From positions 1 through 64,000 of IMG/VR virus record IMGVR_UViG_3300037067_003771: a stretch of DNA of 64,000 bases. One strand, written 5' to 3'. A model generated the notes under the pieces. It had not been told where the DNA came from. It did not search any database and saw nothing but the letters and a program-made list of their open reading frames with translations. Positions 3,555-63,972 of this stretch are shown here, one piece after another. Origin of the DNA: a virus. Lineage: Duplodnaviria > Caudoviricetes. Each line of letters starts with the position of its first letter. Position 1 is the first letter of the stretch. The position numbers and the translations under genes were made by a program.

Positions 3555-6251
3555 TTATGTACGTTCAGTATAACCCAATGACTCTAAATCTTTACTATCT
3601 AATCCTTGTTTTGATACATTAAATGTAAAAGATGCTTTTTTAGAAACAGCAAAACCAGACGGTTTTTGATAAATAACATCAAAATTAACACCAGCATCTC
3701 CTTTTAAATTGAATCTATTATATGTTGTATCATAAGTAAATATACCTTTAACATTAGTCCCATGATTTACTAGTGTACAATTTTCAGTAACATAATTATA
3801 AGAAACAGATTCAAATTTTAATGGGCCAGAAATTCCTTTAAATTTATCAATACTAAAATAAAATAAATCATATGGTATTGCAGAAGGTTTTCTACTATCT
3901 AATGTCACAATAAGTTTATTTAAATCTTCTTTTAAGTCACAAGTAATAACACCTTGTCCTGATATAGAATTATATCTTAATATAACATTCACAAAATTCA
4001 AAATAAAATTTTCACCAACTGATACATAAGGAACAATAACATTTGCGTTGTCATAAAAATCATTACCTTCAATTGTTATACTAAAATCTTGTCCTAAATA
4101 TTCTCCACCTGTATTTGTTAAAAATATATTGTTTGCATAAATTGTATTAACAGGAGAAATTTGTGACCCAATATTATTTATAGTACCTTCAATATCACCA
4201 CCATCGATAATGACACCATTACTTATTGATATTTTTCCCAATGCTGGTAAGTAAATATTATTAGCGTATAAATTATTTAAATATCCTTTATCAACAAAAA
4301 ATCCACCATCAGCACCTAAATTTGTTAAATATAATGTTCTCCATTTAGATGTTATACTTCCAAGATTTAATGTTGCTGTGTTTGGAATAAAACTAGTGTC
4401 GCACGTAAGAGCATTAGAACGCTCTGTGGACGATGATTTGGAATAACCTATGTGTTCTACCCATAACTTCTTATAGCCTCTATAAAGTGCCCCTATGTCA
4501 TCCCTATTGTGTTTTAAAGGAAGGACGTTACCATATGTGTGAATATTTCTACCGGCAACAAATAAAATGTCTTTATCTACTCCTAAATAATCAGAAATGT
4601 CAGTATCATCTTGTTCTGTCAAATTCCAAATTCTATTAATAATTTCTTCAGAAGTTGCCCAATCAACATCAGCATATTCATCATTTAATGTAATAAGATG
4701 AATATCATTTAAACTTCTTATTAATAAATCAGATTGGTGTGTTGCAGTTCCAACACCATCACTAGCACTTGTTCTATATGAAGAAATGTTTCCATAAAAA
4801 TATTTTGTGTTGGGAATTGATGTTAGATATTTATTATCACCATCAGTTGTGATCATTGCGGAACTATAATAAGGCCCACACATTACATCAGAATTATAAA
4901 ATCCAGCTTTATTATCACCAGCATTTATTTTAATATAGAACCCATCAAAGTTTTCACTTGTTAATATATCGTCAATTGAATCATCAAACATTTCTAATTT
5001 ATCCGATAATATTAAATGATTCCACCTATTTGATGCAGAAGAATTATATGTCCCCAATCCAAAATCTTTATCATATTTTGGAATAACAGAAAATACATTA
5101 TAAGGATTTAAATTAGAACATTGCCCATACATATCAAATGCAAAATCACCATCTGCATTTGTTCTCATTAATGTTCTTATTCTACTCTCATCTGTATTTA
5201 CATATTGCAAACATAATTGATCTAAATCAGATTCTTCACTTTGATTAACTTTATTTACTCTTTCAAAAGTAGAAACTAACATTTTCGCTACACCTGGAGA
5301 ATCCGCAGATAATATTGCAGACCTATCATCCAAACCTAATCTGTTGCTAACATAAACAGACCCATCATAAAGTAAACCATATTGTCCATCTTCATTTGAC
5401 ACTCTTTGCCAGTAATCTGCACTACTACTAAAGAAAATATCTTCAAAGTTTGCGCTCACCGCTTGACAATCAATTTGAAAATCTAATACAAATTCACCAA
5501 CAGAAAAATTTGTTGATGATGCAACAGAAGAATTTAATATTTGTGTTTCCGGAATTATTACTTGAGCAAAAAGTGTCGGTTCTCCTGTAACTATCATATC
5601 TCCTGTATATTTTACAGTAAAAAGTGCTAGTTTATTAAACTTAATTTGATTATTATTATCCGTTCTAACAACAACTTTAAAATTTGCTCTACTATCTCCT
5701 GATGTAACTACTTGTTGATATGATACACCTCGATATAAATAGTTTTCATCTGGATTTACTAATGATTGTGGGCCAAATGCGGCAGATGTTAACCCTGATG
5801 TCGCATAATAATCATCTGATAGATACCAAGATGCACCTAAAGAACCTGGAGACAAAACATCATTTGCTGTAAAATATGATCCCACAGCACTAGTATTATA
5901 TGTATTGATTTTTAATCCATTTTCATGAACATAATTTGTCAATTCATATCCAATACCTGATGTTGATATAGATTCATTTCCAGTATTGACAATATAATCT
6001 TCAGAATTTGAAATTGCATATGTTCCTGAACAATTCCACAATATTTCTCCTTGTGGATATAAGTCTGATGCTGATGTATAAAGACTAACATCATTAGATG
6101 CGGAATAATCAGCATTCACTAATCCCAATGATTGATCTAATCTCCAATCATAAATAGGAACATAATATTGAATACTTATAAACACACCTTCACTTGCGGC
6201 ACTATTTATTTCGTTCAATCCGGCACTTGTTATCATTGCATAATTTGGCAT
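3555..6251 (-). CDS. Baseplate-attached tail fibre protein
   Basis: N-terminal MITSAGLNEI resembles fibre/baseplate attachment domains; repeated shaft motifs (e.g. PNTATLNLGSITSKWRTLYL); follows the gp7-like gene. Confidence 0.65.
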   Translation of the reverse strand: MPNYAMITSAGLNEINSAASEGVFISIQYYVPIYDWRLDQSLGLVNADYSASNDVSLYTSASDLYPQGEILWNCSGTYAISNSEDYIVNTGNESISTSGIGYELTNYVHENGLKINTYNTSAVGSYFTANDVLSPGSLGASWYLSDDYYATSGLTSAAFGPQSLVNPDENYLYRGVSYQQVVTSGDSRANFKVVVRTDNNNQIKFNKLALFTVKYTGDMIVTGEPTLFAQVIIPETQILNSSVASSTNFSVGEFVLDFQIDCQAVSANFEDIFFSSSADYWQRVSNEDGQYGLLYDGSVYVSNRLGLDDRSAILSADSPGVAKMLVSTFERVNKVNQSEESDLDQLCLQYVNTDESRIRTLMRTNADGDFAFDMYGQCSNLNPYNVFSVIPKYDKDFGLGTYNSSASNRWNHLILSDKLEMFDDSIDDILTSENFDGFYIKINAGDNKAGFYNSDVMCGPYYSSAMITTDGDNKYLTSIPNTKYFYGNISSYRTSASDGVGTATHQSDLLIRSLNDIHLITLNDEYADVDWATSEEIINRIWNLTEQDDTDISDYLGVDKDILFVAGRNIHTYGNVLPLKHNRDDIGALYRGYKKLWVEHIGYSKSSSTERSNALTCDTSFIPNTATLNLGSITSKWRTLYLTNLGADGGFFVDKGYLNNLYANNIYLPALGKISISNGVIIDGGDIEGTINNIGSQISPVNTIYANNIFLTNTGGEYLGQDFSITIEGNDFYDNANVIVPYVSVGENFILNFVNVILRYNSISGQGVITCDLKEDLNKLIVTLDSRKPSAIPYDLFYFSIDKFKGISGPLKFESVSYNYVTENCTLVNHGTNVKGIFTYDTTYNRFNLKGDAGVNFDVIYQKPSGFAVSKKASFTFNVSKQGLDSKDLESLGYTERT

Positions 6252-6270
6252 TTAAATCTCCGTTTATAAT

Positions 6271-6278
6271 TATTTATA
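6271..6278 (-). promoter_or_regulatory. T4-type late promoter
   Basis: Intergenic TATAAATA upstream of a GGAG RBS. Confidence 0.7.
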
Positions 6279-6285
6279 TATTTCA

Positions 6286-7446
6286 TCAAATATAAAAATC
6301 TGCATAACCATCAGATTTTAAAACTAAATGTTTTCTTGTTCTAACATAAGGTCTAACATACAATGTTGCATAAGCATTAAATTTTGCAGTAACACCATCA
6401 AAAACTTGATTAATTGCTTTTATTGATAATATAGCTTTACCAATTATATTTTGTTTTTCGACATCGATTGAATAATTTCCACTCTCTTCTAAATCATAAT
6501 ACAGCTTAAAATGTGGCGTTGAAAAATAATTATCTGGAATATCAGATATATCTTCAACTAAAGATTCTATATTTAAATTTGTCGTTTGCCAATTGTCACC
6601 AAAACCTTTTTGTAATGCCTTTAATGTTTCCCAAAACTTTTGTCTATTATATTTAAATTCTTCCCATTGTGATAATATACATTTTATCTCTTGAATCTCC
6701 TGAAAACTCATCCCAGGTTTAATTAAATATGGAGATAATGAATCAATACTATTTATTCCTTGTTTGTCCATGTAATCTAATGTATAATAATAAACAAAAT
6801 CACCAACTAAACCAAAACTATACATTGCTAATTTTATTGCTGATCTCGTGCCTTTTATTTCATACCAAGTAGATAAATTATTCATTAAAAATCTTAAATA
6901 TTTTTTCTGATTTGCTTCCTCATTTCCACCAACATAATCATAACCCACATTATCTCTACTTAAATCAACATTATCAAATCCTAAATTAGAACCATAAAAT
7001 TGTATAAGTTCTATCGGTATATAATCCGGATCAACTAATTCTGTTAATCTTTGTATCTTTTCTAAAATAGATATTTCTTTTGTGTTTATTAAACAACTTC
7101 CTGACAAATCAATAATTTTTACATCATTGGCCGGTGTATCTAAACTTATTGCTGATGTTGCTGACACAATATAACTGTTATGCTCATATGAATGTTCAAC
7201 CGCTGATAATGAACACGCAGATGTCATGCAATATGTTATGTCTAAATCTTGAGCACTTAAACCATATGAACGATCTCCATCATACATCTCATTTAAATAT
7301 TCCTCAAAAACTTCAACTAATTTTTCTGTGTCCGTGTTGTTAATATATTCAGGAAGATAAGATACTAAATCTATCTGTTTATCTTGACCAATTCTAGTAA
7401 CTTCTGGCCCATATAATGTAATAAACGATCTTTTTATTTCAGCCAT
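6286..7446 (-). CDS. Baseplate wedge protein (T4 gp7 / P2 gpI-like)
   Basis: LVSYLPEY; LVDPDYIP..LI..YG..LG; WYEIKGTRSAIKL (KGT motif). Confidence 0.7.
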   Translation of the reverse strand: MAEIKRSFITLYGPEVTRIGQDKQIDLVSYLPEYINNTDTEKLVEVFEEYLNEMYDGDRSYGLSAQDLDITYCMTSACSLSAVEHSYEHNSYIVSATSAISLDTPANDVKIIDLSGSCLINTKEISILEKIQRLTELVDPDYIPIELIQFYGSNLGFDNVDLSRDNVGYDYVGGNEEANQKKYLRFLMNNLSTWYEIKGTRSAIKLAMYSFGLVGDFVYYYTLDYMDKQGINSIDSLSPYLIKPGMSFQEIQEIKCILSQWEEFKYNRQKFWETLKALQKGFGDNWQTTNLNIESLVEDISDIPDNYFSTPHFKLYYDLEESGNYSIDVEKQNIIGKAILSIKAINQVFDGVTAKFNAYATLYVRPYVRTRKHLVLKSDGYADFYI

Positions 7447-8779
7447 TATAATTCCTCATGTTATCAAAACTATTAAAAGTATTAAAATTTTTAATAGTTT
7501 TATTTATAAGGTTAATTCTTATTGGGTTCAACACAAACCCTCTATCCAATAGATCAGAAATAATCTTTTCATTTTGGATTACTTTTCTTAGGATATTAAT
7601 ACTACCATTAACATCAGCATTGATTAATTTTCCAGTATTACTTTGAAATAAACCACGTTTAATTCTTTTACCTAAATACTTTTCATGTTTCTTAATTGGT
7701 TCTAAAGCCAAGCTATCGCATTTAGAAGTATAAGATTCTTCATGAGTGATGACATTGATACCGACTTCATCAGCTTTGTATTTAATCATTGAAATTAATT
7801 TAGCGTGAGGAATATTAACAAAATTTTGATTATTTCTTTTGCCGATATTAATTTTATTTTTCCAATTTTTATTATAACCAATTACGACATTTTTAATTTT
7901 ATGTTCAATGCAATAGTTAATAATAAATCTTGAGGTTTGATGTAAATAATTCTGTATCTGATTGTTTCTTTTAAATGTTAATCTATTAATCTTGTTTGAA
8001 GTTCCTTTATCACCAACATATTTTTGAAGTTTAGATTTAATTTTATTATAGAAGTGATTTATGGATTTAATAATTTTACCATTTATAATGAAAGTTTTAC
8101 CTACATTATTTACACATGTAGCTAGATTATTTAATCCTAAATCTATACTTAAATAATTATTATTATTAAAATCTAATTCTTGTGGAGTTATGGTATACAC
8201 AACTTCAATTACATAACATGTAGCTTGAGGAATTATTCTAACTTGATTAATATTTTTAACTTTTGTCTTTAATGGTTTTAAATTAACCATTTTAGGAAAA
8301 TTAATATTACCATCATTAATTTTTAAAACTTGTGATGTAAATATTACAACATTTCTGCCTCCTGTCTTGTGTTTATACTTGGGTAAATTTGGTATACCTT
8401 TACATTCATTTGGATGTACATGATAATCCTTTATAGATTTAAAAAATGAATTCCAATTTTTATATAATAATTTTATTATTTGCTGTGAGGTCTGTGCTGG
8501 TAATGACCTATAATCCTTTTGATTTGTTTTAGCTAAATGTGTTGTTAATTTATATTCTTTAATCTTATAATATATTTTTTCTATCTCTTCATTGTCTTTA
8601 ATTTTCTTTATTGTAAAACTTTCAATCAAATTAATTATTTCAGGATCAAGATTATCATGACGGTTTATATATACCTGTCTAAGAATATAATTACAATAAT
8701 TATATAAATTCTTAGATAAAAAACACAATTCATCTAAATTTTTATCATTAATCTTTATGTGGCGTTCTGCTCTTTGCAT
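7439..8779 (-). CDS. tnpB: RNA-guided endonuclease TnpB (IS200/IS605 family)
   Basis: SKNLYNYCNY; LPAQTSQQ; RuvC-I SIDLGLNNLA; VIGYNKNWK; EESYTSK; RuvC-III INADVNGSINILRK. Confidence 0.93.
   Translation of the reverse strand: MQRAERHIKINDKNLDELCFLSKNLYNYCNYILRQVYINRHDNLDPEIINLIESFTIKKIKDNEEIEKIYYKIKEYKLTTHLAKTNQKDYRSLPAQTSQQIIKLLYKNWNSFFKSIKDYHVHPNECKGIPNLPKYKHKTGGRNVVIFTSQVLKINDGNINFPKMVNLKPLKTKVKNINQVRIIPQATCYVIEVVYTITPQELDFNNNNYLSIDLGLNNLATCVNNVGKTFIINGKIIKSINHFYNKIKSKLQKYVGDKGTSNKINRLTFKRNNQIQNYLHQTSRFIINYCIEHKIKNVVIGYNKNWKNKINIGKRNNQNFVNIPHAKLISMIKYKADEVGINVITHEESYTSKCDSLALEPIKKHEKYLGKRIKRGLFQSNTGKLINADVNGSINILRKVIQNEKIISDLLDRGFVLNPIRINLINKTIKNFNTFNSFDNMRNYNG
7501..7508 (-). promoter_or_regulatory. 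Possible late promoter inside the tnpB 3' end
   Basis: TATAAATA ~55 nt upstream of the gp7-like start. Confidence 0.45.
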
Positions 8780-8856: not shown

Positions 8857-9573
8857 TCACTTTTCTGCACTATAAAGCACTTCTAATTTAACATCATATT
8901 CTTGTCCATAAAATCCGCAATATATACATTCCGCTATATTTGATGCGCAACTAGCATAATCATTTGCTCCACTCGTTACTCCATAATCAAACCACCATCT
9001 ATATTCAGTAGGTTCATACAATCCTTCATATTTACCTTTTGGAATATGATTATAAACTTCAAATGTTACATATAAAGGATTCTCACCACTTACTGAAGTT
9101 GCACTAAATTGATAATCAAAATATTTTATTCCTGTTGCTATTTCTTCAGGAACTATTAATCTTAACGTTACAGGTATATAATTAGCAACACAATTTACTC
9201 CCGCTGATAATGTCGGAGTTAATGTTAATGTGGGAATAGTATATTCAGCAATACCATTTGTAAAATCCCCACCAAAATAAAATGCTCCAATATGACCTGT
9301 TCTAAATCCAGAAGTGCTTGTTTCTATTGAAAATTCAGAACCCAAAACTTCTTCATTATCATCGTCATCAATTATTTTTACAAAACAATGTTCTGCTTCT
9401 GGTTCACTTATTAACCAATTATATGATAAAATAGTCTCTGGATCTTCGTCACCCGAAACAGAATATAATTCTTCCCAAGTATCACCGCTTGTGCGAGATA
9501 AATATAGGGTGTTGGTTCCTAATCCTGTATACCAACTAAAATTATAATATTCACCTATATACAAAATTGACAT
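8857..9573 (-). CDS. Hypothetical virion protein (Ig/PKD-like)
   Basis: Beta-rich; YRWWFDYG PKD-like motif; within the fibre cluster. Confidence 0.5.
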   Translation of the reverse strand: MSILYIGEYYNFSWYTGLGTNTLYLSRTSGDTWEELYSVSGDEDPETILSYNWLISEPEAEHCFVKIIDDDDNEEVLGSEFSIETSTSGFRTGHIGAFYFGGDFTNGIAEYTIPTLTLTPTLSAGVNCVANYIPVTLRLIVPEEIATGIKYFDYQFSATSVSGENPLYVTFEVYNHIPKGKYEGLYEPTEYRWWFDYGVTSGANDYASCASNIAECIYCGFYGQEYDVKLEVLYSAEK

Positions 9574-11324: not shown

Positions 11325-11954
11325 TTAAATTAAATGTTCTACTTTTATATCATAATTTAAGTATATTTTATAACCACATTCTTTTGCTAACATTGAAAAT
11401 CCAACATCTTCAAACATTAATTTGCAATATTCATTTCCATCTTTTTCTTTTTCAATTATAGGAAACCTAAACCACGGATAAGGTAACTTTTCAAACACTT
11501 CTTTTTTTATTAATAAACAACCAGCACCAACCCAATCAACAGTTTTTAATCCTTTAGTAGTATATATAGATTTTAAAGCATCATCAAAATTTCCATTTTT
11601 ATCATATTTAAAATTACCACCAACAATCAATTCTTTATTTTCTCTACTTTGATAAGCAGCCGAAATAATATCAACATCATATCTTAATAAATTTTTTATA
11701 TCTTCAACAGTTGCAACTATATCCGAATCTATGAATAAATAATGAGTAAAAATATCATTTATTTTTTGAAATTTTAAATCAGATTTATTTCCATTAATTA
11801 AATAATTTCTTGTTTGTGCTATTGCGGTTCCTCGTTCATATTGCCAAGCACAATTTAAATCAGAATCTAATAATGAATAAATTGAATTTAATGTTTTTTC
11901 TTCAATTATATTGTAAAATGGTGTACAAATTTTTATATCATGATAATAACACAT
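11325..11954 (-). CDS. GT-A fold (GT2-like) glycosyltransferase
   Basis: ICTPFY; IAQTRNYLI; THYLFIDSD (DXD); VDWVGAGCLLIKKEVFEKL; EDVGF; C-terminal VEH. Confidence 0.85.
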   Translation of the reverse strand: MCYYHDIKICTPFYNIIEEKTLNSIYSLLDSDLNCAWQYERGTAIAQTRNYLINGNKSDLKFQKINDIFTHYLFIDSDIVATVEDIKNLLRYDVDIISAAYQSRENKELIVGGNFKYDKNGNFDDALKSIYTTKGLKTVDWVGAGCLLIKKEVFEKLPYPWFRFPIIEKEKDGNEYCKLMFEDVGFSMLAKECGYKIYLNYDIKVEHLI

Positions 11955-11972: not shown

Positions 11973-13319
11973 TTAAACTACTTCATAAAAAAACGATCCT
12001 GCCGCACCTTTATCGCCAGATGTTGTCCAATTGTCATCACCCAAAACCGAAAAACCATTACCTTTTGATATTATAATTGTACCATTGGCACCTTCATATG
12101 ATAATGTTGCCGGAGTATCCGAACCATCATCTTTTGCTGGTACAATGCCACACATTGGCCCACTACCACCCACGGCATCAACAGAAAATCTAGGATTTGA
12201 CGGTAAGGTAAAAGTAAATTTATTACTATCACTTGTACCAACAATATAAAATTCACAAAATAATGTTCTACCAAGATATTTATAATAAATATGTTTTGCT
12301 GTTGTTGATGCAAAACCCGACAAATTACAAGAATCACTATGTTCTGTCCAAGGAACGGTATATATGTCTGGATAACCACCCGTAACATCAACATAAACAC
12401 AATCAGTTCCACTAACACCCAAACTTAATGGTTTTGCACTAGAACCGCTTGTATTGATTTTAACATAATCTGTGGTATCAGAAATCATTATTGTTGCAGA
12501 TGTGGTTCCAATTTCTAATTGAGTATTTAAAAAATCACCTCTAATTAATGAATTATTTTCATTTCTTATTTCTAATCTATCATCAATAGTATTTTGATAT
12601 CCTGATTTTTTTCCAATATTAACACAATCATCAGCACTTGCCATGTATCCTGAATAAAAACCTAAATTTATATTACGTTTTCCTACGCCTCTATAATTAG
12701 CAATATCACCAATAGAAATAGTATCATCAGCACTAGCTATATAATTTGTATTATAACCAAAGCCAAAATTATTTGTTCCACTTAATTGATAATTAGAAGT
12801 ATCGCCAACACCTATATTTTTAGCGCCAATTAATTCATAATTTGCTTTATTTCCCAAAGATATATTTTTTGATCCACTAGAATAATATCCTGCTTGATAC
12901 CCTTCATGTATACCACCATTAGAGTCCGCCCCATTTGAACTTTGATATCCAGCATAAGGCCCAACATTAATTGCTGGATATGTAGCATCATTTCCGGCAT
13001 GATGACCAATATTTATTGAATTTTCTGCTCTATTAGTTGCTGAAGTTTTACCATCTTCGCCGTCAGAATCAGGTTTAACTGATATTACAATAGTATTATC
13101 GTCACAATAAATTCTTTTAAATCGTACTACTTCATCTATTCCAGCAAATCTAGTAACAGCACTAGTAATACTATCTTTTCCACCCCAAAAACCAGCACTA
13201 GTATTAGGATAAAAATATGACAATGTGCTGTTACTTTCAAATCCAATTTGTTTAGGATTAACCGCACTTAAATTTTCAGTTTCTATATGTAAAATTCGTC
13301 TTGCTGCTGATGTACTCAT
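11973..13319 (-). CDS. Tail fibre/adhesin with YadA-head-like repeats
   Basis: Tandem 14-aa N(I/V)x(I/L/V)G..A.Y repeats followed by a fibre-tip-like domain. Confidence 0.7.
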   Translation of the reverse strand: MSTSAARRILHIETENLSAVNPKQIGFESNSTLSYFYPNTSAGFWGGKDSITSAVTRFAGIDEVVRFKRIYCDDNTIVISVKPDSDGEDGKTSATNRAENSINIGHHAGNDATYPAINVGPYAGYQSSNGADSNGGIHEGYQAGYYSSGSKNISLGNKANYELIGAKNIGVGDTSNYQLSGTNNFGFGYNTNYIASADDTISIGDIANYRGVGKRNINLGFYSGYMASADDCVNIGKKSGYQNTIDDRLEIRNENNSLIRGDFLNTQLEIGTTSATIMISDTTDYVKINTSGSSAKPLSLGVSGTDCVYVDVTGGYPDIYTVPWTEHSDSCNLSGFASTTAKHIYYKYLGRTLFCEFYIVGTSDSNKFTFTLPSNPRFSVDAVGGSGPMCGIVPAKDDGSDTPATLSYEGANGTIIISKGNGFSVLGDDNWTTSGDKGAAGSFFYEVV

Positions 13320-13332: not shown

Positions 13333-14541
13333 CTAAATACATGGTGGATTTATTGCATCTTGTAAAATTATCTCTCCGTCTATTGAATCTTGAATGATAT
13401 ATGTTTCGGTATAACTATCTTGAATAATACATTCTTCTTCTATACAAGTATTTATATATTCTGATCTATTATATCCAAATAAACCAGTTTCATATTCTGA
13501 ATATGCTGAAAAACCATACCCTGGATTTGCCGGACATGAAATTCCTTCAAATGGTTCAATTTTATCTTTATTTAAAATAACATAACTTAAAGATTTATTA
13601 TAAAGGTCGCTCCCACTTAAAAATGGGAATATATCATAATCAACAAAATCCCACGAATATTGATTATTAAAAACGTCTGTTGAACCAAAAGTATAGCCTT
13701 TGTTATAATATTCATTAATTAAATCTATTGACTCAGTGAAAACTGTATTTAAAAAAGTTAATTCAACATCAGGACTTGAAATATTTACATATCCCAAATT
13801 GTGCGTTACTGTATCAACAAAACTTGTAAACATTTCTTCATTGTTTGTCCCCAAACCAATATTTTCATAATTTATTCCTAGTCCTAAACATGGGGAATTT
13901 GCTGAAAGAAAAAAACTATCATATGCAGAAGTATCATAATTAGTTCCATCTAAATATTTTAAAATCAACGGATCGTTATCAAAGATACTATGTTCATCAG
14001 CACCAACAATTTCACTTTGATAAACATAATCACCGAAATTATAAAAACAATTATTGTCTATAACGCATTTATCGTAGTTTGTAATATTCAACGCAAAATT
14101 ACTTGTAATTTCAGACCGCCCATAAAAAATATTATTATGAATTTCAAAATCAGTTTCAATGTCCTCTGCATCTACCCAAACACAACTAATTCCCGTTGCT
14201 CCTGCCAAATTATCAACAACAAACAAATTATTTTTTATTTTTACTTTATTTGTTCCACTTAGTGAAGACAAAACGCCAACAGTATTATCTGCTCTTAAAA
14301 TAAAAACATTTTTTTCAATGTCAATAGTCTCATATTCACCATCAAGAGTCACACCATAAAATTGTTGTGTGTCAGAAAAATTATAACATAAATTTTCTTT
14401 TATTCTAATTCCATTACACATAGCAGAAGAATCTAACTGTATGACAGTTAAATCCGTGACGGTTTCAGACGTATCATTAATAGAAAAAGAATTATTATTA
14501 ATATTACATTTATTTGAATTTAAAATATTTATTACATTCAT
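13333..14541 (-). CDS. Right-handed beta-helix virion protein
   Basis: Recurrent IxNN(x)F stacks and the LSANSPCLGLG cap motif. Confidence 0.6.
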   Translation of the reverse strand: MNVINILNSNKCNINNNSFSINDTSETVTDLTVIQLDSSAMCNGIRIKENLCYNFSDTQQFYGVTLDGEYETIDIEKNVFILRADNTVGVLSSLSGTNKVKIKNNLFVVDNLAGATGISCVWVDAEDIETDFEIHNNIFYGRSEITSNFALNITNYDKCVIDNNCFYNFGDYVYQSEIVGADEHSIFDNDPLILKYLDGTNYDTSAYDSFFLSANSPCLGLGINYENIGLGTNNEEMFTSFVDTVTHNLGYVNISSPDVELTFLNTVFTESIDLINEYYNKGYTFGSTDVFNNQYSWDFVDYDIFPFLSGSDLYNKSLSYVILNKDKIEPFEGISCPANPGYGFSAYSEYETGLFGYNRSEYINTCIEEECIIQDSYTETYIIQDSIDGEIILQDAINPPCI

Positions 14542-14542: not shown

Positions 14543-15088
14543 TTATTCAGGTTCTTCTATAGAAAAATTAAAAATATTATTTTGTGTGTTTATAAATGTA
14601 GAATTTTCTATTTTTATAACGTCAGAATTATTTGAATAATCTGTTGTTGAAAACTCATTATCATTAATATTTATATTATTTGTATTTAAAACATAAACAA
14701 ATTTTCCACTATTTGATGTTTTGTATAAATGTAAATGTTTTAATACCGATCCGTTTGCATATAAACCTTCAAATTTTATACCATTTCCACTAGGTTTCAA
14801 ATATATTTTAGGTCTAACATTATAATCACTATCAGCGACAATATTAACTCTAACATTTATATTGATGTCGTATGATGTATCAACAACAGAATATTGATTT
14901 ATTGATGCCAAATCATTTGCGTTTTTTACCGGATTAAAAATTCTTATATAATCATTATCCATCAAATTAATTTTTGTTGCTGGATCAATTAATAATTCAT
15001 AAAAATTTTTAGCTCCCTTTTCCCTAACATTATATGGAAATGTCCCACTAGAGGCTTTATTTGCTCCATTTATAAAATAATATGCCAT
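14543..15088 (-). CDS. Beta-helix N-terminal-like virion protein
   Basis: MAYYF...SGTFPY...GA start; NINxNEF/NNIF stacks. Confidence 0.5.
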   Translation of the reverse strand: MAYYFINGANKASSGTFPYNVREKGAKNFYELLIDPATKINLMDNDYIRIFNPVKNANDLASINQYSVVDTSYDININVRVNIVADSDYNVRPKIYLKPSGNGIKFEGLYANGSVLKHLHLYKTSNSGKFVYVLNTNNININDNEFSTTDYSNNSDVIKIENSTFINTQNNIFNFSIEEPE

Positions 15089-26341: not shown

Positions 26342-26342
26342 T

Positions 26343-42187: not shown

Positions 42188-42217
42188 TCCTTTTTAATTT
42201 ATATAAATACTATAAAT

Positions 42218-42276: not shown

Positions 42277-42363
42277 TAAATCTTTATATAATTTTTCTAT
42301 TTTTATTTTTTTTATATTTTTTGTTAATTTGTTTCTTATAATAACAGTTCCATTTTTAAAACA
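42265..42363 (-). other. N-terminal fragment of a naturally split intein (IntN, 32 aa)
   Basis: CFKNGTVIIRNKLTKNIKKIKIEKLYKDLSRG-stop after QEYG. Confidence 0.85.
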
Positions 42364-53678: not shown

Positions 53679-53703
53679 TTCCTCCTACTAATTAGTACAT
53701 AAG

Positions 53704-53711
53704 TATTTATA
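53704..53711 (-). promoter_or_regulatory. T4-type late promoter
   Basis: TATAAATACTT upstream of AGGAGG. Confidence 0.75.
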
Positions 53712-53740
53712 TTTTTTATAGTTAAAAATTAACAAAAAAT

Positions 53741-54421
53741 TTAATTTTTTTTATTTTTAATTTCTGCAATAAATTCAAGCATATACGATAACATCAAATT
53801 TGACACATCTTTACATTCAAATTTATTAGATTTTTTTTCTACACTTTTTTGTAAATTATTCAACGCAACTTCAACTATTTTTCCATCGTTACCTAAAATA
53901 TATTCTCTATTCTCAAGCACTCCCTTAACAAATGCTGTTGGTGCGGAAGGACTATGAATGATATCAACACCAATCAGTGAAAAATCTTCACTAACCCATT
54001 CACCTTCCAGTGTACCTAGACCGCAAGTTGACATACCCAAAAGAATACCCTCATCAACTAATGTTTTTGCAATTCTTCCCATAGGAGTATCTAATAATTT
54101 AGCCTTACCATAACCGATATTATTTTTCATATATAGTTCAGTAATTAAATGTGATACTCTATCAAGATTAACCATTGGTGTTTCAGAATGATCAAGCTGT
54201 CCTAATGACCGTTTTTGTTTAATATAATTTTCATTATATGCTTTTACTTCACGTTCAATAACATCTTGTTTATAACGTCTACCATTTTTGTTTAAAGTTT
54301 CTGCTTCTAAAAATGGGCCAGTTAAAAAGTAATTCTTTTTCGTTTCACCATTTATTTCGTAATCTTCTTTTAATATATCAATGTCCTTAATGTCAACGAA
54401 TTCTCTAATTATTTTGGGCAT
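53741..54421 (-). CDS. Prohead protease, T4 gp21-like
   Basis: GPFLEAETLNKNGRRY; LGQLDHS; VSHLI; LLDTPMG; GMSTCGLG; DIIHSPSAPTAFV. Confidence 0.92.
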   Translation of the reverse strand: MPKIIREFVDIKDIDILKEDYEINGETKKNYFLTGPFLEAETLNKNGRRYKQDVIEREVKAYNENYIKQKRSLGQLDHSETPMVNLDRVSHLITELYMKNNIGYGKAKLLDTPMGRIAKTLVDEGILLGMSTCGLGTLEGEWVSEDFSLIGVDIIHSPSAPTAFVKGVLENREYILGNDGKIVEVALNNLQKSVEKKSNKFECKDVSNLMLSYMLEFIAEIKNKKN

Positions 54422-54470
54422 AATAACTCTCCTACAAATAGTTTATAGAACAAAAATTTTGCTCTATAAG

Positions 54471-54478
54471 TATTTATA
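54471..54478 (-). promoter_or_regulatory. T4-type late promoter
   Basis: Intergenic TATAAATACTT. Confidence 0.75.
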
Positions 54479-54491
54479 TATTTTATTTATT

Positions 54492-54671
54492 TTATTTCGT
54501 TAAATTAAGAATTTCTTCTTGTTTTTCTTTTGGTATATTATTTATTTGTGCTAATACATCAACTTTTTTATCATCAATCTTTTGTTTAATGATTGCTGAT
54601 GTTTTTTCTTCTGTGTAATCTTTTAATTCTACCCAATTATCATCAAGAATAGTTTTAATGATCGATTCCAT
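54492..54671 (-). CDS. Small prohead core protein candidate (59 aa)
   Basis: Below the ORF-track cutoff; AGGAG RBS; MESIIKTILDDNWVELKDY...; occupies the T4 gp67/68 position. Confidence 0.6.
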   Translation of the reverse strand: MESIIKTILDDNWVELKDYTEEKTSAIIKQKIDDKKVDVLAQINNIPKEKQEEILNLTK

Positions 54672-54704
54672 TTTGTTGCTCCTTTTTGTTGTTAAAAACT
54701 CAAT

Positions 54705-55235
54705 TTAATTATTTACTTTAGATTTTATAAAATCAATTTCTCTAGGATGCATCTTCTCAATATTTTGTTTAATAATTTCTTTTGCTCTACTAAAATATTT
54801 TTTAATATAATCAACAATTTTTTCTGGTGAATCTGTCTTTTTTCTAAATCCCAATTTTAATCTGCCATATGCCATATATTTTTCTGTTGGCGCTGTCGAT
54901 ATACTACCACCTCTATGAGTGTCAATAGTAACTTTTTCTGGTAATGTTCCGTCTGAATTTAATTCTCTTCCTTCAGCATCAATAGTAAAATCATGAATCA
55001 TTGGATCATTGTCAATTATTCCATTACTCCATTCCGTTTGATCTTTGCCTAATGTAAATTTAACATGAATTGATGGATAAAAACTTGTACTAAATTTAGA
55101 CACAACATAAGAATTAGGAAAAACTTCTTTTATTGCCAATTTAATTTTTTCTGCTAATTCATTTGCCGTCATTGAAACGTCTTCATTTAATGTTTTATCA
55201 AATGCTTCATTTAAATATTTTTCATAATTTTTCAT
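54705..55235 (-). CDS. Putative internal head protein
   Basis: MKNYEKYLNEAFDK leader shared with the adjacent gene. Confidence 0.65.
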   Translation of the reverse strand: MKNYEKYLNEAFDKTLNEDVSMTANELAEKIKLAIKEVFPNSYVVSKFSTSFYPSIHVKFTLGKDQTEWSNGIIDNDPMIHDFTIDAEGRELNSDGTLPEKVTIDTHRGGSISTAPTEKYMAYGRLKLGFRKKTDSPEKIVDYIKKYFSRAKEIIKQNIEKMHPREIDFIKSKVNN

Positions 55236-55933
55236 GCTTACCTCTGTTTATAAATTTTTACCTATCTTTTTATTTTAATAACTCATCTTTTTCATTCTTA
55301 ACAAATTCATAAGCATTTTTCAAAGCATCAGTTTCATGTTTAAATGCTGGCATTCCAAAACCATCTTCTGTATAATGATCTATGTCAATTGTCCCACCAT
55401 ATTTTTTTAATAATTCTTTATTTTCAACATTATCTTTAATGATTAAATCAACAACGACATAATTAAAAGAAGGTCTAAATACATTATGTGGAGAAACATA
55501 ATCATCATAAACAGTTGTCCCATCTGGAAACTTATAAACATCTCTTATTCTATTTCTATTAACTTCTATAGTTTCTAAACTTTCAGCGGTTTCTTCCCAT
55601 TGCTCAAATGTATGAAAATTATTTATAGATTCATTCAATTTATAAACACTAGCATAATTAACAGTTTTAATAATTGGTTCAATATTTTTCCATTTTCTAT
55701 TACCCTCATCATATTTTTCTGTGCATTTAATTTTATATGAATATATGTCTGAACCAAATTGATCTTTTCCTAAAATTGATTTTATTACCTCTCCTCTTAA
55801 TTTACCAATAGATACTTTTATTCCAGGTTCTAAATATTCATTAGCGTCAATGGATTTTAAATTTTTTTCATTGAGTTTATCAAACGCTTCATTTAAATAT
55901 TTTTCATAATTTTTCATGTTTGCCTCTGTTTAT
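55194..55933. repeat. 58-nt direct repeat (55194-55251 and 55876-55933)
   Basis: RBS plus first 14 codons duplicated, 55/58 identical. Confidence 0.85.
55270..55917 (-). CDS. Putative internal head protein
   Basis: MKNYEKYLNEAFDK leader; internal LNES junction. Confidence 0.65.
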   Translation of the reverse strand: MKNYEKYLNEAFDKLNEKNLKSIDANEYLEPGIKVSIGKLRGEVIKSILGKDQFGSDIYSYKIKCTEKYDEGNRKWKNIEPIIKTVNYASVYKLNESINNFHTFEQWEETAESLETIEVNRNRIRDVYKFPDGTTVYDDYVSPHNVFRPSFNYVVVDLIIKDNVENKELLKKYGGTIDIDHYTEDGFGMPAFKHETDALKNAYEFVKNEKDELLK

Positions 55934-57727
55934 GTTTACAAATTCTTGTAATATTGGTGTAGTTTTTCCTTTTATTTTAAAAGTAAAAGATTCTTCCGGT
56001 GTAACTTCTTCAGGAGTTTCTTCTGTTGCTGGAACTTCTTCAGGAGTTTCTTCTTCTGTTCCTACTGGTTCATTACCACCAGTAGCGCCGCCAAATCCAG
56101 ATGCAGTTGTATTCACTTCAGGTTTTTCAACACCAAATTCATCTTCTTCATTGTCGCTTGCATTATCAAATCCAGCTTCAATTTGTTTTGCTTCAAATGT
56201 TAAATTTTCTTTTTCTTTTAACATTTTATTCAATTCAAATTCTTCATCTGTCATCATAAACCATTTTCTCAACACAAATTCTTGAGAAAAATATCCATTT
56301 GGATTTTCTTCAGGCTTATAAATAAAAGAATCTATATTTCCAAGTAAAGCAAATCTGGATTCTAACAATTCTAATTCTTTATATCGTTTATATAAATTAG
56401 ATTCACTAAATTTAATATTGTAAAGAGAATAATCTAAATAAGCATCATCTCTTCCTCTTAATCGTAAAATGATAATAAATGTATCAAATAAAACATATTT
56501 AAATTTTTTCTGTAATCTTGTTATGAAATTTGAAAACTTAATTTCCTCTTGACTAACTTCACCACTTTTACCTGTACTATATTGATTTCCTGTTTCAACA
56601 TCACTCCATCTAGTACTAGGAAGTTTTAAATTCTTATAGAGTTTCTTTTGGAAGTATTTTACATCTTCCATTTCACCAAGATTTTGTGCTGCCGGGAGAG
56701 TATCAACCGTGGTTTGTTCGCCATCACTACCTTTTGCAAACCAATAATCTTCAATCATTGCTTGAACATTTTGTGCAGAGTCCATTGCTCCCGTAGAAGA
56801 ATCATATTTTATTCTTTTTCTATATCTCTGCATCAAACCTTTTATATATTCTTCAGCTTTAGTTTTTGGCATATTGCGGGTTGCAACATTCCAAATTCTT
56901 CTTTCGGCAGACCTACTTATACGATAAATAACAACAGCATCTTCTAAATTTTTTAATTGATTATATACTCTAACACAAGATTCTAAAAATCCTTTTACAT
57001 CATATTTATTTAAACCTGTTCCATAACTAATATGAACAACTTGATCTTTATCAAATAAAACATTATCTTTAACTTCTTCTCCATGTGATGCTGGAACCTC
57101 ATTAATATTAAACGAGTTCACAGACTGCACATAACCCACGATTTTGCCATCTTCATATACAGGGGCCATTGTATGTGGGGGTAATACTTTAATGCCTATT
57201 ATATCGCTTCCTTGGCTGTTTAAAATCAATTCTATGTACAATTCACCATCAACAAGAAACTTTCTAAATAAATCCCATCCGATTTCATTAAAATTAAACA
57301 CATCTTCTATTAAATCTGTCCAATCTTGTCTAATTGTTTCGTCAATGTGTTGTGGTAATTCTCTTTTTATTTCTAAATCAACAAGACTTCCATCTATAGA
57401 TTCAAGAACGGCATCATCAGAAATAATATCCAAAGCATCAGATATATCCGGATAATAAGACATTTCTCTATATTTTGATATTCTATTTAACTTTGTAGAA
57501 AAATATTCCTCAAACTGAATATTAATAGAAGTCATCCCACAACTACTCTCATTATTATATTCATATTCAGAACTTAAATTAGAAATTTGTTTTCTTAAAT
57601 CTAATTGTTCTTGAGAATAGCCTTGACTATTAATAATTTCTTGTTTTGATTGAACATCATCATCGAAACGCTTAGTACTAAAAAACTTAGCAAATTTGTT
57701 TATATTTACAAAATTAAACAATCCCAT
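55904..57727 (-). CDS. Portal protein, T4 gp20-like
   Basis: YREMSYYP; VDG; NQLKNLEDAVVIYRISRSAERR; EDYW; TLP..QNLGEMEDV.YF; EEIKFSNFI.RLQ. Confidence 0.95.
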   Translation of the reverse strand: MGLFNFVNINKFAKFFSTKRFDDDVQSKQEIINSQGYSQEQLDLRKQISNLSSEYEYNNESSCGMTSINIQFEEYFSTKLNRISKYREMSYYPDISDALDIISDDAVLESIDGSLVDLEIKRELPQHIDETIRQDWTDLIEDVFNFNEIGWDLFRKFLVDGELYIELILNSQGSDIIGIKVLPPHTMAPVYEDGKIVGYVQSVNSFNINEVPASHGEEVKDNVLFDKDQVVHISYGTGLNKYDVKGFLESCVRVYNQLKNLEDAVVIYRISRSAERRIWNVATRNMPKTKAEEYIKGLMQRYRKRIKYDSSTGAMDSAQNVQAMIEDYWFAKGSDGEQTTVDTLPAAQNLGEMEDVKYFQKKLYKNLKLPSTRWSDVETGNQYSTGKSGEVSQEEIKFSNFITRLQKKFKYVLFDTFIIILRLRGRDDAYLDYSLYNIKFSESNLYKRYKELELLESRFALLGNIDSFIYKPEENPNGYFSQEFVLRKWFMMTDEEFELNKMLKEKENLTFEAKQIEAGFDNASDNEEDEFGVEKPEVNTTASGFGGATGGNEPVGTEEETPEEVPATEETPEEVTPEESFTFKIKGKTTPILQEFVNINRGKHEKL

Positions 57728-60692: not shown

Positions 60693-62033
60693 TTATTCAT
60701 AAATAACAGTCATATCCACCGTAACAGCATTTACTATTGTTAATCCCGTACTAAACGGTAAATTATATTCCAACCCAAACGGTGTCACACCATTATCAGG
60801 ATCAACAATAGCAATTATAGTTCCTGCGGATGTAGTATTATCATATATAGTTACAGTACCATTAGCGGGTTGATTCATAATCACCCTTTGGAGTGTTCCA
60901 GAACCATATTTACAAACCGTAGTCGATCCAGTTGTTATTCTTTTATATGTTGGTAATGATGTTTCTTGTCCTGTTCTCAATATTGCTGCCGCCAAACAAT
61001 CAAATATAACATTAGCAGTTTGGCCCGAATAATTTGTATTTTCTATTCTAATTGGTAATGTTAAAAAATTTGTCAATATTCCATTAGAAACAGAATGTAA
61101 TTTATATCCATCAATATAAAAATATACTGTTAAGGGTGTCCACTCAATTTCTAATTTATGATATGAATTATCGACTATATATGATAAACCCAAATTACCA
61201 TTAAATGTTCCATTTGGAACTTTAATATCAGAACCGCCTCGCCTTGTCACTAAATTAAATGTTGAACCATCAAGTTCAAAGAAAAAACCATCAGCATCAT
61301 CATATGCACCAATTCTTCTATAGTTATTTGTTGTTGCAGATGTTGTTACTCTTGCATATCCAACAAAATAATTAGTTGTTCCAATAATAAATCTTCCTCT
61401 TATATTACTAGTATATTTAATTGACGCATTAGCAGAAGTATTAGTTCTTAATTGTATATCCCCACTTTGAGATGCTGATGCACCATTGACTATACTTTCT
61501 GTCCAAAAATTTATGTCCTTTATTGCCCCATCAAAATTACTACCAACTAATTTTACATATGTAGCAACCCCCAGCATATTTGTTTCTGTTACTTCAACTA
61601 TTTCATCACCATCTCTACCAACTATTACACTTTCAGTTTTTAATCTGCCACTTTCTGTTAATGCTTGTGGTAATGCCTCTACTATCGGACACATCACAGT
61701 TTGCAATCTAAAAAATGATGTTGCTGAAACTTCATTATTAACCACTCTAACTCTAGCATACGAATTCACTGCTTGTTCAGTTATTCCCAATCCAACTTCA
61801 GAAGAACGATATTGATATAAATTTGTTAAATCCCAATTATATCCATCCGGAGATTGGTCAATATACACATAACAATTTCTATCTGTATGTAAACTTACTT
61901 GTATACCATTTACACCCAATGTAGATGCTGATGTTCCTGTATATGTTCCATATGCACTCAAATTTGTGCTTGATGAATTTCCATCAGAAACAATAACATT
62001 TTGTTTTATATTAACATCTTTTAAATAACTCAT
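60693..62033 (-). CDS. Virion protein with ConA-like domain
   Basis: DGFFFE; YHKLEIEW...VYFYIDG; C-terminal GTVTIYD...F.TGL.I small beta domain. Confidence 0.6.
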   Translation of the reverse strand: MSYLKDVNIKQNVIVSDGNSSSTNLSAYGTYTGTSASTLGVNGIQVSLHTDRNCYVYIDQSPDGYNWDLTNLYQYRSSEVGLGITEQAVNSYARVRVVNNEVSATSFFRLQTVMCPIVEALPQALTESGRLKTESVIVGRDGDEIVEVTETNMLGVATYVKLVGSNFDGAIKDINFWTESIVNGASASQSGDIQLRTNTSANASIKYTSNIRGRFIIGTTNYFVGYARVTTSATTNNYRRIGAYDDADGFFFELDGSTFNLVTRRGGSDIKVPNGTFNGNLGLSYIVDNSYHKLEIEWTPLTVYFYIDGYKLHSVSNGILTNFLTLPIRIENTNYSGQTANVIFDCLAAAILRTGQETSLPTYKRITTGSTTVCKYGSGTLQRVIMNQPANGTVTIYDNTTSAGTIIAIVDPDNGVTPFGLEYNLPFSTGLTIVNAVTVDMTVIYE

Positions 62034-62045: not shown

Positions 62046-62702
62046 TTATAATATCCAATATTGTGTATTATCACTAATTACTTGTAAATTTTCATATTGA
62101 GAAATTGGTTGATATATTTCACCGTCAATAGTCGTCCCACCAATTATATCAGAATTTGCACTTACTATTCCAACGCCGACATTTTTTATATTAAATACTT
62201 TACCATTTGCTGGAATTGGTAAATTAACAGAATATGAACTCCCACTACAAATAATAACATCATCATTGGCAGATATATCATATGTTTCAGTTTTAGTTAC
62301 TATATTTAATTTTAATCCAGCAACATAAACCGACCGATCTAACATTTCATTAATTGCTAATTGAACATTATCACCCGATAAAACAGTTCCAGAATTATCA
62401 AACCAAATTTCATCTGCATCATAATCGCCAGATAAAGGCTCAATATGACCAACTCTTCCATTAAATTCATTAACCCCAGCGGATAACATTGTTGCAGAAA
62501 TGTCACCGATATTCATATCAATTTCAATAATAGCGTCATCAATATTAGATGATGATAAACTTGTAGATGAAAAATCTGATGTTAATAATTGTTCTCTTGT
62601 TATATTTTTAGTAGCTGATGTAGATACATCAACCACAACAAACATATCACTATTATCAGCTAGAACTAAATTAGTTAATTCTGTTATTTTCTTTGATGGC
62701 AT
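62046..62702 (-). CDS. Fibre-like virion protein
   Basis: KKITELT...VVD..TKNIT; NV..AI.E repeats; FNGRVG; VNLP...GK.F.IK...TIDG...W C-terminal domain. Confidence 0.6.
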   Translation of the reverse strand: MPSKKITELTNLVLADNSDMFVVVDVSTSATKNITREQLLTSDFSSTSLSSSNIDDAIIEIDMNIGDISATMLSAGVNEFNGRVGHIEPLSGDYDADEIWFDNSGTVLSGDNVQLAINEMLDRSVYVAGLKLNIVTKTETYDISANDDVIICSGSSYSVNLPIPANGKVFNIKNVGVGIVSANSDIIGGTTIDGEIYQPISQYENLQVISDNTQYWIL

Positions 62703-62703: not shown

Positions 62704-63234
62704 TTATTCCAATATTAAAAAGTCTTCATCTTCTGTTTCTAATAAATATTCATTTTCTTCTAAAATAAAATTTTCATATAATTTTGTTGCTTCACATTTA
62801 CATTGGGGAATCCAAACATCATTATACTTATATTCCTGAAAAAGCGTATCACCATCTTGTACAATTCTCCATGTACCATTTTCATCTTCCCCAAAATATT
62901 TAGGATTCAATGATCTATTATTAACAGCGGCAAGGGCAATTAAATTTGCATCCCTATCACCAATACCACCGGAACCCCAAATTGGATATGTTCTTAATTG
63001 AGATAAAAAATCAACATCATGTTTTAACTTTTCAACTATGTCATCAACACTAGGAATATTTTTCTTTTTTACTTCTTTTTGTTTAACATAAACAGTTTTT
63101 ATAACTGGTTTTTCTTTAGGTTTTATTTCAACATTAATATCTTTAACGTAAACATCTAAATCACCAATAAAAGAATCCTCATTTAATGATTTTAAATATT
63201 TAAATATTTCATTTTTTTCAAATTCAGAGATCAT
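62704..63234 (-). CDS. Hypothetical protein
   Basis: GSGG linker; C-terminal YLLETEDEDFLILE. Confidence 0.55.
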   Translation of the reverse strand: MISEFEKNEIFKYLKSLNEDSFIGDLDVYVKDINVEIKPKEKPVIKTVYVKQKEVKKKNIPSVDDIVEKLKHDVDFLSQLRTYPIWGSGGIGDRDANLIALAAVNNRSLNPKYFGEDENGTWRIVQDGDTLFQEYKYNDVWIPQCKCEATKLYENFILEENEYLLETEDEDFLILE

Positions 63235-63521
63235 TTTATTAATTCTTTTAATTTTTTAATTATAATTTCAGATTCTAAGAATGTATCACCTTGAGTAGTG
63301 AATTCTTCATTTTCATTTATATAATTAAACAATTTAAATTTTTCTATATAATCTTTTTCTACATCATGATTATTTTTCAATAGTACCAACTTAACAATAT
63401 CGTAATCTTCCAAACCTTCTTTTAAAAGAATGAAATTTTTTAATGTTTTAATTTCATTTTCAGATAAAATTTTCTTATCTTTATTTTCCATCTTCTCTCT
63501 TATTTTTTTAAAATCATTCAT
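63231..63521 (-). CDS. Hypothetical protein
   Basis: Probable start MNDFKK behind AAGGA. Confidence 0.5.
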   Translation of the reverse strand: MNDFKKIREKMENKDKKILSENEIKTLKNFILLKEGLEDYDIVKLVLLKNNHDVEKDYIEKFKLFNYINENEEFTTQGDTFLESEIIIKKLKELIK

Positions 63522-63531
63522 GATTATTCCT

Positions 63532-63972
63532 TTATAAATTATATACTTTAATAAAACCATCTGAATTTGTGTTAAATGATAACACACTTCCAGTTAGAAT
63601 ATCTTTTTCTTCTGTACAATCAAAATAATAAACAGGGCATCCTGTATCAAGATGATATAATGCAGCAAATCTAACATTATTTATATCAGCAGATGATGCC
63701 GACACATTTATACTATCACAATGAAAATAAACAGTATTTGAATTTATACTTGCTGATGTACCTGTACATAATATTCCACCTTCTGCATCATATGATGTTC
63801 CTGAAACAGCACTAATTTCATATGCAGACAGATCAGAATATGCTGATATATTACCCAAAACTGTATTGCTATATGAACCTTCACATAACATCAATTTAAA
63901 ATTATCAGCATCACAATCAATTTGTTTTATAAGTAAATTATAAATAAAAAATTTTGAAACAAAATCAGACAT
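63532..63972 (-). CDS. Putative virion structural protein
   Basis: FKLML...Y...D...E.S..GT.Y..GG...A.LY pattern; Ser-Ala rich. Confidence 0.55.
   Translation of the reverse strand: MSDFVSKFFIYNLLIKQIDCDADNFKLMLCEGSYSNTVLGNISAYSDLSAYEISAVSGTSYDAEGGILCTGTSASINSNTVYFHCDSINVSASSADINNVRFAALYHLDTGCPVYYFDCTEEKDILTGSVLSFNTNSDGFIKVYNL

Follow-up and report, generated by a model that had tools for sequence, protein, structure and literature searches.

Why would a phage place the same three residues, again and again, in virion proteins that are not related to one another? The question is raised by the first half of the IMG/VR virus record IMGVR_UViG_3300037067_003771 (G000; 128,185 bp, 27% G+C, CheckV completeness 56%), a stretch of 64,000 nucleotides (positions 1 to 64,000) that we refer to as the window. 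An initial annotation of this stretch had noticed dense Ser-Ala motifs in outer virion proteins and suggested a virion-wide O-glycosylation signal, possibly read by two GT2-like enzymes encoded in the window. The analysis reported here shows that the motif is real, ordered and residue-specific, and that it acts at the amino-acid level. It is best explained as a short linear motif held at high density by selection on exposed, fast-evolving parts of outer virion proteins, and the clade concerned is a large group of uncultured aquatic T4-like phages. The reading that we prefer, with a probability of about 0.4, is that the central serine of the motif belongs to a putative O-glycosylation sequon and is modified by transferases made by the phage itself.

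An ordered motif in the late proteins

Expected counts were taken from shuffles of the residues within each protein, and shuffles in blocks of 8, 12 and 20 residues served as stricter controls. In the window the dipeptide Ser-Ala (SA) occurs 144 times against 71.1 expected, which is the largest deviation of all 400 dipeptides (z 9.3; runner-up z 5.5), whereas the reverse dipeptide Ala-Ser (AS) stands at expectation (74 vs 70.7; SA vs AS, binomial test, p = 7e-7). The dense S-A pattern first noticed in the sequence thus persists after correction for composition. Under all three block shuffles the SA excess is retained and AS stays at expectation, so local Ser/Ala-rich composition is not the cause, and together with the within-protein shuffles this rules out composition, global or local, as the explanation. 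The excess belongs to the late genes, which occupy the minus strand of the first 75.8 kb or so of the record. In this block SA occurs 169 times against 85.5 expected and Thr-Ser-Ala (TSA) 41 times against 6.1 (z 14.4), whereas neither is in excess in the genes for early functions and replication, which follow on the plus strand (SA 30 vs 31; TSA 2 vs 1.7).

Position-specific counts and pattern tests define the motif as [TVLI]-S-[AG], found 166 times in the late block against 61 expected (2.7-fold, z ~14). Changes at any of its three positions abolish the excess. The reversed motif is at 0.87 of expectation; Thr as the central residue ([TVLI]T[AG]) gives 1.00, Ser or Thr at +1 ([TVLI]S[ST]) 0.85, Asn or Asp at +1 about 0.9, and a residue other than T, V, L or I at -1 ([^TVLI]S[AG][^ST]) 1.09. 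An [ST]-[GA]-S pattern, tried as an alternative, does not capture the signal: T[GA]S is at 0.73 of expectation, and only those forms that start with S-A or S-G are enriched. SAS occurs 21 times against 7.5 expected. A Ser or Thr at +2 lifts the enrichment to 4.6-fold; around the sites T, V, I and Y are frequent, and Lys and Glu are depleted. Both the AGY and the TCN codons of serine, and all four codons of alanine, contribute roughly in proportion to their usage, which places the signal in the protein and rules out a DNA-level cause such as a DNA motif or a codon pair.

The late proteins have no excess of N-linked sequons (N[^P][ST], 255 vs 267 expected). The Campylobacter-type N-glycosylation sequon D/E-x-N-x-S/T is depleted in them (18 vs 35.5, z -3.0). 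A search of the literature found no report of a motif such as [TVLI]-S-[AG] in T4-like phages.

Sites on outer virion proteins and in relatives

Ten late proteins are individually significant for [TVLI]S[AG] at p < 1e-3. These are the products of 3555-6251, 6286-7446, 8857-9573, 11973-13319, 15088-18432, 19591-22758, the gp15-like gene, 62046-62702, 63532-63972 and 63983-65770, the last of which lies just beyond the window. Weaker carriers are encoded at 13333-14541, by the gp6-like wedge and sheath genes, and at 60693-62033 and 67453-67905. The hub and inner baseplate proteins, tube, portal, protease, scaffold, both terminase pieces, endonucleases, transposase and the GT-A-like open reading frames (ORFs) have none or one site each (tube, 1 vs 0.4 expected), and the capsid protein as a whole is not enriched (SA 5 vs 5.3; motif 4 vs 2.4). 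Neither the capsid nor the tube protein has a C-terminal cluster of sites. The signal therefore sits on outer virion proteins and is not virion-wide, as had been suggested at first. All the strings quoted in the initial annotation are present, among them the six SA of the 146-aa product of 63532-63972 and MTSACSLSA..VSATSA at residues 74-99 of the product of 6286-7446. As it also stated, SA is absent from the scaffold (52833-53678) and from the N-terminal piece of the terminase (42265-43632). The capsid insertion that it singled out does hold four SA within residues 140-171, although this local cluster does not make the capsid protein a carrier.

The carriers are not mutual paralogues. All-vs-all BLAST gave only two short terminal matches between them, which rules out shared ancestry, and by this comparison the motif excess arose independently in about 12 non-paralogous proteins. 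Some carriers have few known relatives: the 898-aa product of 3555-6251 has no PHROG or Pfam match, and that of 62046-62702 has a single homologue among 5.8 billion proteins.

In the sheath and the gp15-like protein, the sites fall outside the parts that align to T4. All seven sites of the sheath lie within residues 62-304, whereas the alignment to T4 gp18 is limited to the conserved inner core (residues 7-60 and 343-613); residues 61-342 we take to correspond to the outward-facing domains of gp18. An AlphaFold2 (AF2) model of the sheath (predicted local distance difference test, pLDDT, 84.8; predicted template modelling score 0.83) matches T4-type sheaths in fold at Z 30-39. Six of the seven sites occupy four of the five lowest-confidence 10-residue blocks of this model (residues 31-600), blocks that are also the least conserved bins in an alignment of 69 sequences, and the sites fall in predicted loops and short helices. 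The sheath string ISATTSAIWTSATSG, cited in the initial annotation, is present at residues 192-206. In the gp15-like protein, T4 gp15 aligns to residues 1-214 only, and the clade-specific C-terminal 70 residues hold seven sites; the six SA originally counted in this tail lie in residues 231-270.

The motif is not peculiar to one contig. In the loci of six related contigs anchored on the major capsid protein, SA exceeds AS and TSA is in excess in every case. Five larger relatives, whole or nearly whole, were G001 (253.7 kb, complete), G004 (91% complete), G007, G011 and G013. Their structural regions are enriched 1.9- to 3.4-fold in the motif (z 8-21) over a G+C range of 27-43%, and the reversed motif stays at about 0.9. 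In G001, G004, G007 and G011 the enrichment is 2.7- to 3.4-fold in the structural regions and about 1.0 in the rest of the genome. G013 has 1.9-fold both inside and outside its structural region as drawn, probably because the limits of the region missed some structural genes. With this qualification, the claim that the motif is confined to outer virion proteins and common to the whole clade is borne out. Loci anchored on gp15 have a TSA excess down to about 35% gp15 identity and none below 30%. In the complete relative G009 (158 kb) the S-G form prevails, with [TVLI]SG at 2.6-fold and [TVLI]SA at just 1.4-fold.

Orthologues, as aligned, keep the number of sites but mostly not their position. 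Pairs from the present record and G001 have site counts of 12/9, 6/7, 6/6, 7/6, 7/6 and 4/4, and only 19% of the sites share an alignment column. Neither the product of 6286-7446 (29-33% identical to homologues in G001, G007, G011 and G013) nor the gp6-like wedge has any site in a common column with its G001 orthologue, which has seven and six sites, respectively. G001 also encodes, at 36564-42176, an 1870-aa protein, probably a long fibre, made up of about 30 tandem 11-residue units (such as VSAYQNFPQVT and SAINGGLFVGT) with 55 [TVLI]SA sites.

The structural regions of phage T2, phage C48C1 and Campylobacter phage F360 have no motif excess, which rules out a general property of T4-like structural proteins; in T2, C48C1, F360 and P-HM2 the top dipeptide reaches a z of only 3-4.3. 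The structural region of Prochlorococcus phage P-HM2 has a mild excess of [TVLI]S[AG] (44 vs 26.5; 1.66-fold, z 3.5) and of TS[AG] (21 vs 9.9), and cultured cyanomyoviruses may thus have a weaker form of the phenomenon.

Possible readers of the motif

The mechanism that we propose would run as follows. The motif would sit on the fibres, the outer baseplate, the neck terminator, the outer domains of the sheath and accessory virion proteins, and its central serine would accept an O-linked sugar. Phage-encoded glycosyltransferases of GT-A/GT2 type, made together with the late proteins, would add this sugar in the cytoplasm before assembly, and the periphery of the particle would then be sugar-decorated. 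That an enzyme reads the motif, that this enzyme is a glycosyltransferase, and which glycosyltransferase it might be, are steps that we infer. A trans-acting reader is favoured by the strict three-position order, by the independence of the carriers, by site counts that are kept while positions turn over, and by the richness of the clade in glycosyltransferases; serine O-glycosylation is the best candidate for what such a reader would do. Moreover, the carriers are unrelated and their sites lie in mixed predicted contexts (loops and short helices in the sheath, strands in the gp15-like protein, repeats in fibres), which fits recognition of a linear motif.

Two ORFs of the window look like GT-A-fold enzymes, to judge from predicted models, and each starts shortly after a fibre gene. 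The 209-aa ORF has a Pfam match to Anp1 (GT62) at E 2e-5, although its 24.5 bits are under the 28.8-bit cut-off. Its Atlas structure reaches a template modelling score (TM) of 0.8-0.87 to viral clusters labelled GT2 or Anp1, with predicted models on both sides, and a DxD triplet (DSD, residues 76-78) is in the usual place. The matches of the 371-aa ORF are weaker: TM is about 0.5 to viral nucleotide-diphospho-sugar transferase and GT2 clusters, again between predicted models. It belongs to phrog_1574, of unknown function, and has no Pfam match; its DxD triplet (DMD, residues 96-98) is also in the usual place, and it has no motif site. The "GT2-like" label given by the initial annotation is thus compatible with the predicted fold and the triplet but is not supported at family level: PF00535 and PF13641 matched nothing in the 128-kb record, not even at E <= 1, in a search that gave hits in each of the 14 control genomes.

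Across the window there are 48 copies of the T4 late-promoter word TATAAATA against 24.6 expected, 36 of the 48 on the coding (minus) strand and many in short gaps immediately 5' of late genes. One copy, at 6271-6278, lies just upstream of 3555-6251. Another, at 22759-22766, is directly upstream of the fibre gene 19591-22758, which points to late co-expression of this gene with the candidate enzyme gene 18465-19580. No copy was found upstream of the second fibre gene, 11973-13319.

Relatives carry glycosyltransferase genes as well. PF00535 genes occur in 11 of 14 long relatives, and a GT2 of about 240 aa is common to G001, G007 and G011 (the 236- and 243-aa genes of G001 have homologues in G007 and G011 and none in G004, G009 or G013). 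G009 lacks this type and has GT2-domain proteins of another kind, which are longer (430-529 aa). At 208-230 kb of G001, adjoining the structural module, is a glycan-assembly island of about 22 kb with a GT1+GT2 fusion, three GT2, two GT11 and a GT17-methyltransferase fusion, as well as O- and C-methyltransferases, two radical SAM enzymes (one B12-binding), DUF5672 and DUF3431. The ORF at the very end of the present record (3-1397) has homologues in both G001 and G007, each located some 8 kb away from the GT2 genes of its genome, and a matching island may therefore lie just off the record.

Several observations weigh against a glycosylated sequon. The 209-aa and 371-aa ORFs have no homologue in G001, G004, G007, G011 or G013, which share the motif excess; G004 (91% complete) and G013 have no PF00535 match; and the outgroup G014 has a GT2_243-like domain with the motif excess absent. 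No single glycosyltransferase family tracks the motif across the relatives examined, several of whose records are incomplete, and no clear pattern emerged among them for the co-occurrence with glycosyltransferase genes suggested at the outset. The glycosyltransferase islands could serve modification of DNA or of the host surface instead. In the gp15-like protein, three T-S-[G/A] sites and one S-G are more than 90% conserved in position among 116 homologues, and AF2 predicts beta strands at the tail sites (pLDDT 70-83); loops, which were originally expected of the sites, are predicted in the sheath but not in this protein. In the 1870-aa protein of G001 the motif begins each 11-residue unit. 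This periodicity, and the conservation and predicted strands in the gp15-like protein, fit a structural role equally well.

A purely structural explanation would take the motif (a beta-branched or aliphatic residue, a serine and a tiny residue) as unmodified, and as a mark of how the beta-rich fibrous and decoration domains of this clade fold or pack, for example at strand ends, tight turns or trimer-axis positions. Besides the repeat units of G001 and the gp15 tail, it would account for the strand-like make-up of the flanks, where T, V, I and Y are frequent and K and E scarce, and for a +1 position that takes only Ala or Gly, as a steric constraint would demand. We nevertheless consider it somewhat less likely than the sequon. 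The fibres, baseplate and whiskers of T2 and the structural proteins of C48C1 and F360 have no excess, so folds of this sort do not have the motif in general. No homology links the carriers to one another, and the predicted contexts vary from sheath loops and short helices to gp15 strands. A column shared by only 19% of the sites while their count is kept is not expected of a fold-determining residue, and the sheath sites lie in the least confident and most variable loops. If this explanation is nonetheless the right one, there is still a strong, unexplained sequence rule for the fibre and decoration domains of one clade, which could be used to recognise unannotated outer virion proteins.

The arguments for a linear motif hold equally for other trans-acting readers, be it phosphorylation, acylation or ADP-ribosylation of the serine, or binding of a clade-specific assembly chaperone during fibre folding. 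Such readers gain from the failure to find a conserved glycosyltransferase and from the ART-PolyVal ADP-ribosyltransferase gene in the late block, with late-promoter words upstream; T4-type fibres, moreover, need dedicated chaperones (gp57A, gp38). However, the ADP-ribosyltransferase has a homologue in G007 only, with none in G001, G004, G011 or G013, and neither a kinase nor an acyltransferase came to light in the core late genes. Few core genes of unknown function remain in the late block; no conserved enzyme of that kind was found there, the remaining core genes being UvsW, UvsY and structural genes. A fibre-specific chaperone would also be hard to square with sites on the sheath, on the gp15-like protein and on small accessory proteins. 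Taken together, a reader of this kind seems distinctly improbable. A non-adaptive by-product of base composition, codon context, mutation bias, low complexity or shared ancestry of repeated modules is very improbable indeed. The genome is AT-rich (27% G+C), Ala is rare in it and S, T, A and G abound in some carriers, but the controls already largely refute this origin: codons of both residues contribute in proportion, the reverse order has no excess, the excess survives 8-residue block shuffles and is present at 27-43% G+C, the early genes of the same genomes lack it, and the carriers are not paralogous.

If O-glycosylation at the motif is the true explanation, the sequence of a phage would be enough to locate the O-glycosylated Ser residues of its particle, and the presence of a sugar coat could be tested in a large group of environmental phages, with a bearing on host recognition, stickiness, grazing and stability. 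A broader proposal, which we put forward more tentatively and regard as doubtful at present, is that abundant, uncultured aquatic T4-like phages coat fibres, neck and sheath with glycans at clade-specific Ser sequons of three residues ([TVLI]-S-A/-G, with one sub-clade using mainly S-G), each co-evolving with its own glycosyltransferases, so that the trait would be widespread and sequence-predictable.

The late block and known glycosylation systems

The phage is, according to PHROG and Pfam scans, a T4-like myovirus (Table 1). Its nearest cultured capsid proteins, of phage C48C1 and cyanomyoviruses, are about 35% identical, and a megablast of 25 kb against phage records gave no match. The large terminase (40135-43632) is split: a homing-endonuclease ORF (41186-42187) separates its N-terminal part (42265-43632) from its C-terminal part (40135-41202), a layout that recurs in G001. 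Two HNH endonuclease genes inserted in the late block, at 48277-49449 and at 66298-67443 of the record, are paralogues (36% identical). A transposase gene (7439-8779; phrog_506, E 2e-48) lies within the fibre module, overlaps the start of 6286-7446 by 8 nt and has no motif site. The ART-PolyVal gene (39061-40008; Pfam E 1e-24) is placed between sheath and terminase, with two TATAAATA words just upstream (40027, 40039).

Table 1. Features of the window, with observed and expected counts of [TVLI]S[AG] sites where given
Feature	Position	Strand	Basis or motif sites
RegA	1622-1993		PHROG/Pfam scans
898-aa fibre-like protein, unknown family	3555-6251	minus	12 sites vs 3.8, p 6e-4
386-aa structural protein, labelled gp7-like in the initial annotation	6286-7446	minus	6 sites vs 0.9, p 4e-4
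238-aa protein, chiefly S-G variant	8857-9573	minus	6 sites vs 0.7, p 1e-4
209-aa candidate glycosyltransferase, GT-A fold	11325-11954	minus	starts 18 nt after fibre gene 11973-13319
448-aa fibre-like protein	11973-13319	minus	11 sites vs 2.5, p 5e-5
402-aa protein, weaker carrier	13333-14541	minus	4 sites vs 1.0, p 0.02
1114-aa fibre-like protein, strongest carrier of the window	15088-18432	minus	17 sites vs 2.5, p 1e-9; weak PKD-domain match
371-aa candidate glycosyltransferase, GT-A-like N-terminal 225 residues	18465-19580	minus	starts 10 nt after fibre gene 19591-22758
1055-aa fibre or baseplate-distal protein	19591-22758	minus	18 sites vs 7.4, p 6e-4
gp6-like baseplate wedge, weak carrier	22758-25616	minus	phrog_219, E 1e-35; 6 sites vs 2.6, p 0.05
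Hub, inner baseplate and tube genes (internal controls)	25620-36203	minus	4 sites in total vs ~7
Tube	35625-36203	minus	PHROG/Pfam scans
Tail sheath, sites in outer variable domains	36331-38217	minus	PHROG/Pfam scans; 7 sites vs 2.5
gp15-like sheath stabiliser / tail terminator	46376-47233	minus	PHROG/Pfam scans
gp15-like C-terminal segment, residues 230-270	46424-46546	minus	7 sites vs 0.5, p 1e-6
Major head protein (capsid)	51443-52795	minus	PHROG/Pfam scans
Capsid variable segment, residues 138-172, clustered SA	52280-52384	minus	gap between two stretches aligning to T4 gp23
Scaffold, prohead protease and portal (internal controls)	52833-57727	minus	scaffold 1, protease 0, portal 0 sites vs 1.0
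Scaffold	52833-53678	minus	PHROG/Pfam scans
Prohead protease	53741-54421	minus	PHROG/Pfam scans
Portal	55904-57727	minus	PHROG/Pfam scans
446-aa virion structural protein, weak carrier	60693-62033	minus	phrog_1645; 6 sites vs 1.9, p 0.014
218-aa fast-evolving protein	62046-62702	minus	7 sites vs 1.0, p 1e-4
146-aa virion structural protein	63532-63972	minus	6 sites vs 0.7, p 1e-4; phrog_644 and phrog_24741

Bacteroidetes have a general protein O-glycosylation system with the motif D-(S/T)-(A/I/L/V/M/T), which likewise has three residues, a central acceptor and a small or aliphatic residue at +1 (PMC8550257). That system is periplasmic and needs Asp at -1 (PMC8550257), whereas here the -1 residue is T, V, L or I, Thr is not accepted centrally and virion proteins fold in the cytoplasm. 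In the late proteins D[ST][AILVMT] occurs 104 times against 85 expected (z 2.1) and DS[AG] 13 times against 15.3, with no enrichment of Asp at -1. In the PglL tag WPAAASAP and the PglS tag, Ala directly follows the acceptor Ser (PMC12645811), and Ser is preferred over Thr in Ala-rich exposed segments, as might be the case here. These are, however, periplasmic en-bloc transferases of lipid-linked glycans, which follow no defined sequon and do not need a beta-branched residue at -1 (PMC12645811; PMC8423747). An enzyme of this type was not found in the present analysis, nor was one sought. Bacterial O-glycosylation tags with Ala after Ser and the three-residue Bacteroidetes motif offer, by analogy, a precedent for the putative sequon.

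Serine-rich repeat adhesins have an SAS-type repeat sequence. In Gram-positive bacteria these adhesins are glycosylated in the cytoplasm by GtfA/GtfB (PMC6973325, PMC5578698). Cytoplasmic O-glycosylation of Ser, Ser-Ala contexts and fibrous surface proteins would be common to both systems. The adhesins differ in having hundreds of contiguous repeats, an initiating enzyme of GT-B type and a dedicated export system, whereas here single tripeptides are scattered along the proteins and the candidate enzymes found are all of GT-A type; GT1-type domains were seen in one G001 protein only, and the present record was not searched with PF00534. No long contiguous Ser-rich repeat region was found, the sole long repeat array being the 11-residue unit of one G001 protein.

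The virions of mycobacteriophages are O-glycosylated by phage-encoded glycosyltransferases (Freeman et al. 2023, as cited in PMC12619734). With this system, as that source presents it, our proposal would share phage-encoded enzymes, virion targets, modification in the cytoplasm before assembly and a sugar-decorated particle. True GT2, GT11, GT17 and GT1 genes are present in the relatives, none of them conserved across all motif-bearing genomes. The mycobacteriophages concerned are siphoviruses, and their glycans are reported at the C-terminal ends of capsid and tail-tube subunits. In the present phage neither capsid nor tube is enriched, and the candidate sites follow a defined tripeptide on the fibres, neck terminator, sheath and accessory proteins of a T4-like myovirus. 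Should the broader proposal made above prove true, virion glycosylation would be widespread among ocean phages and not peculiar to mycobacteriophages.

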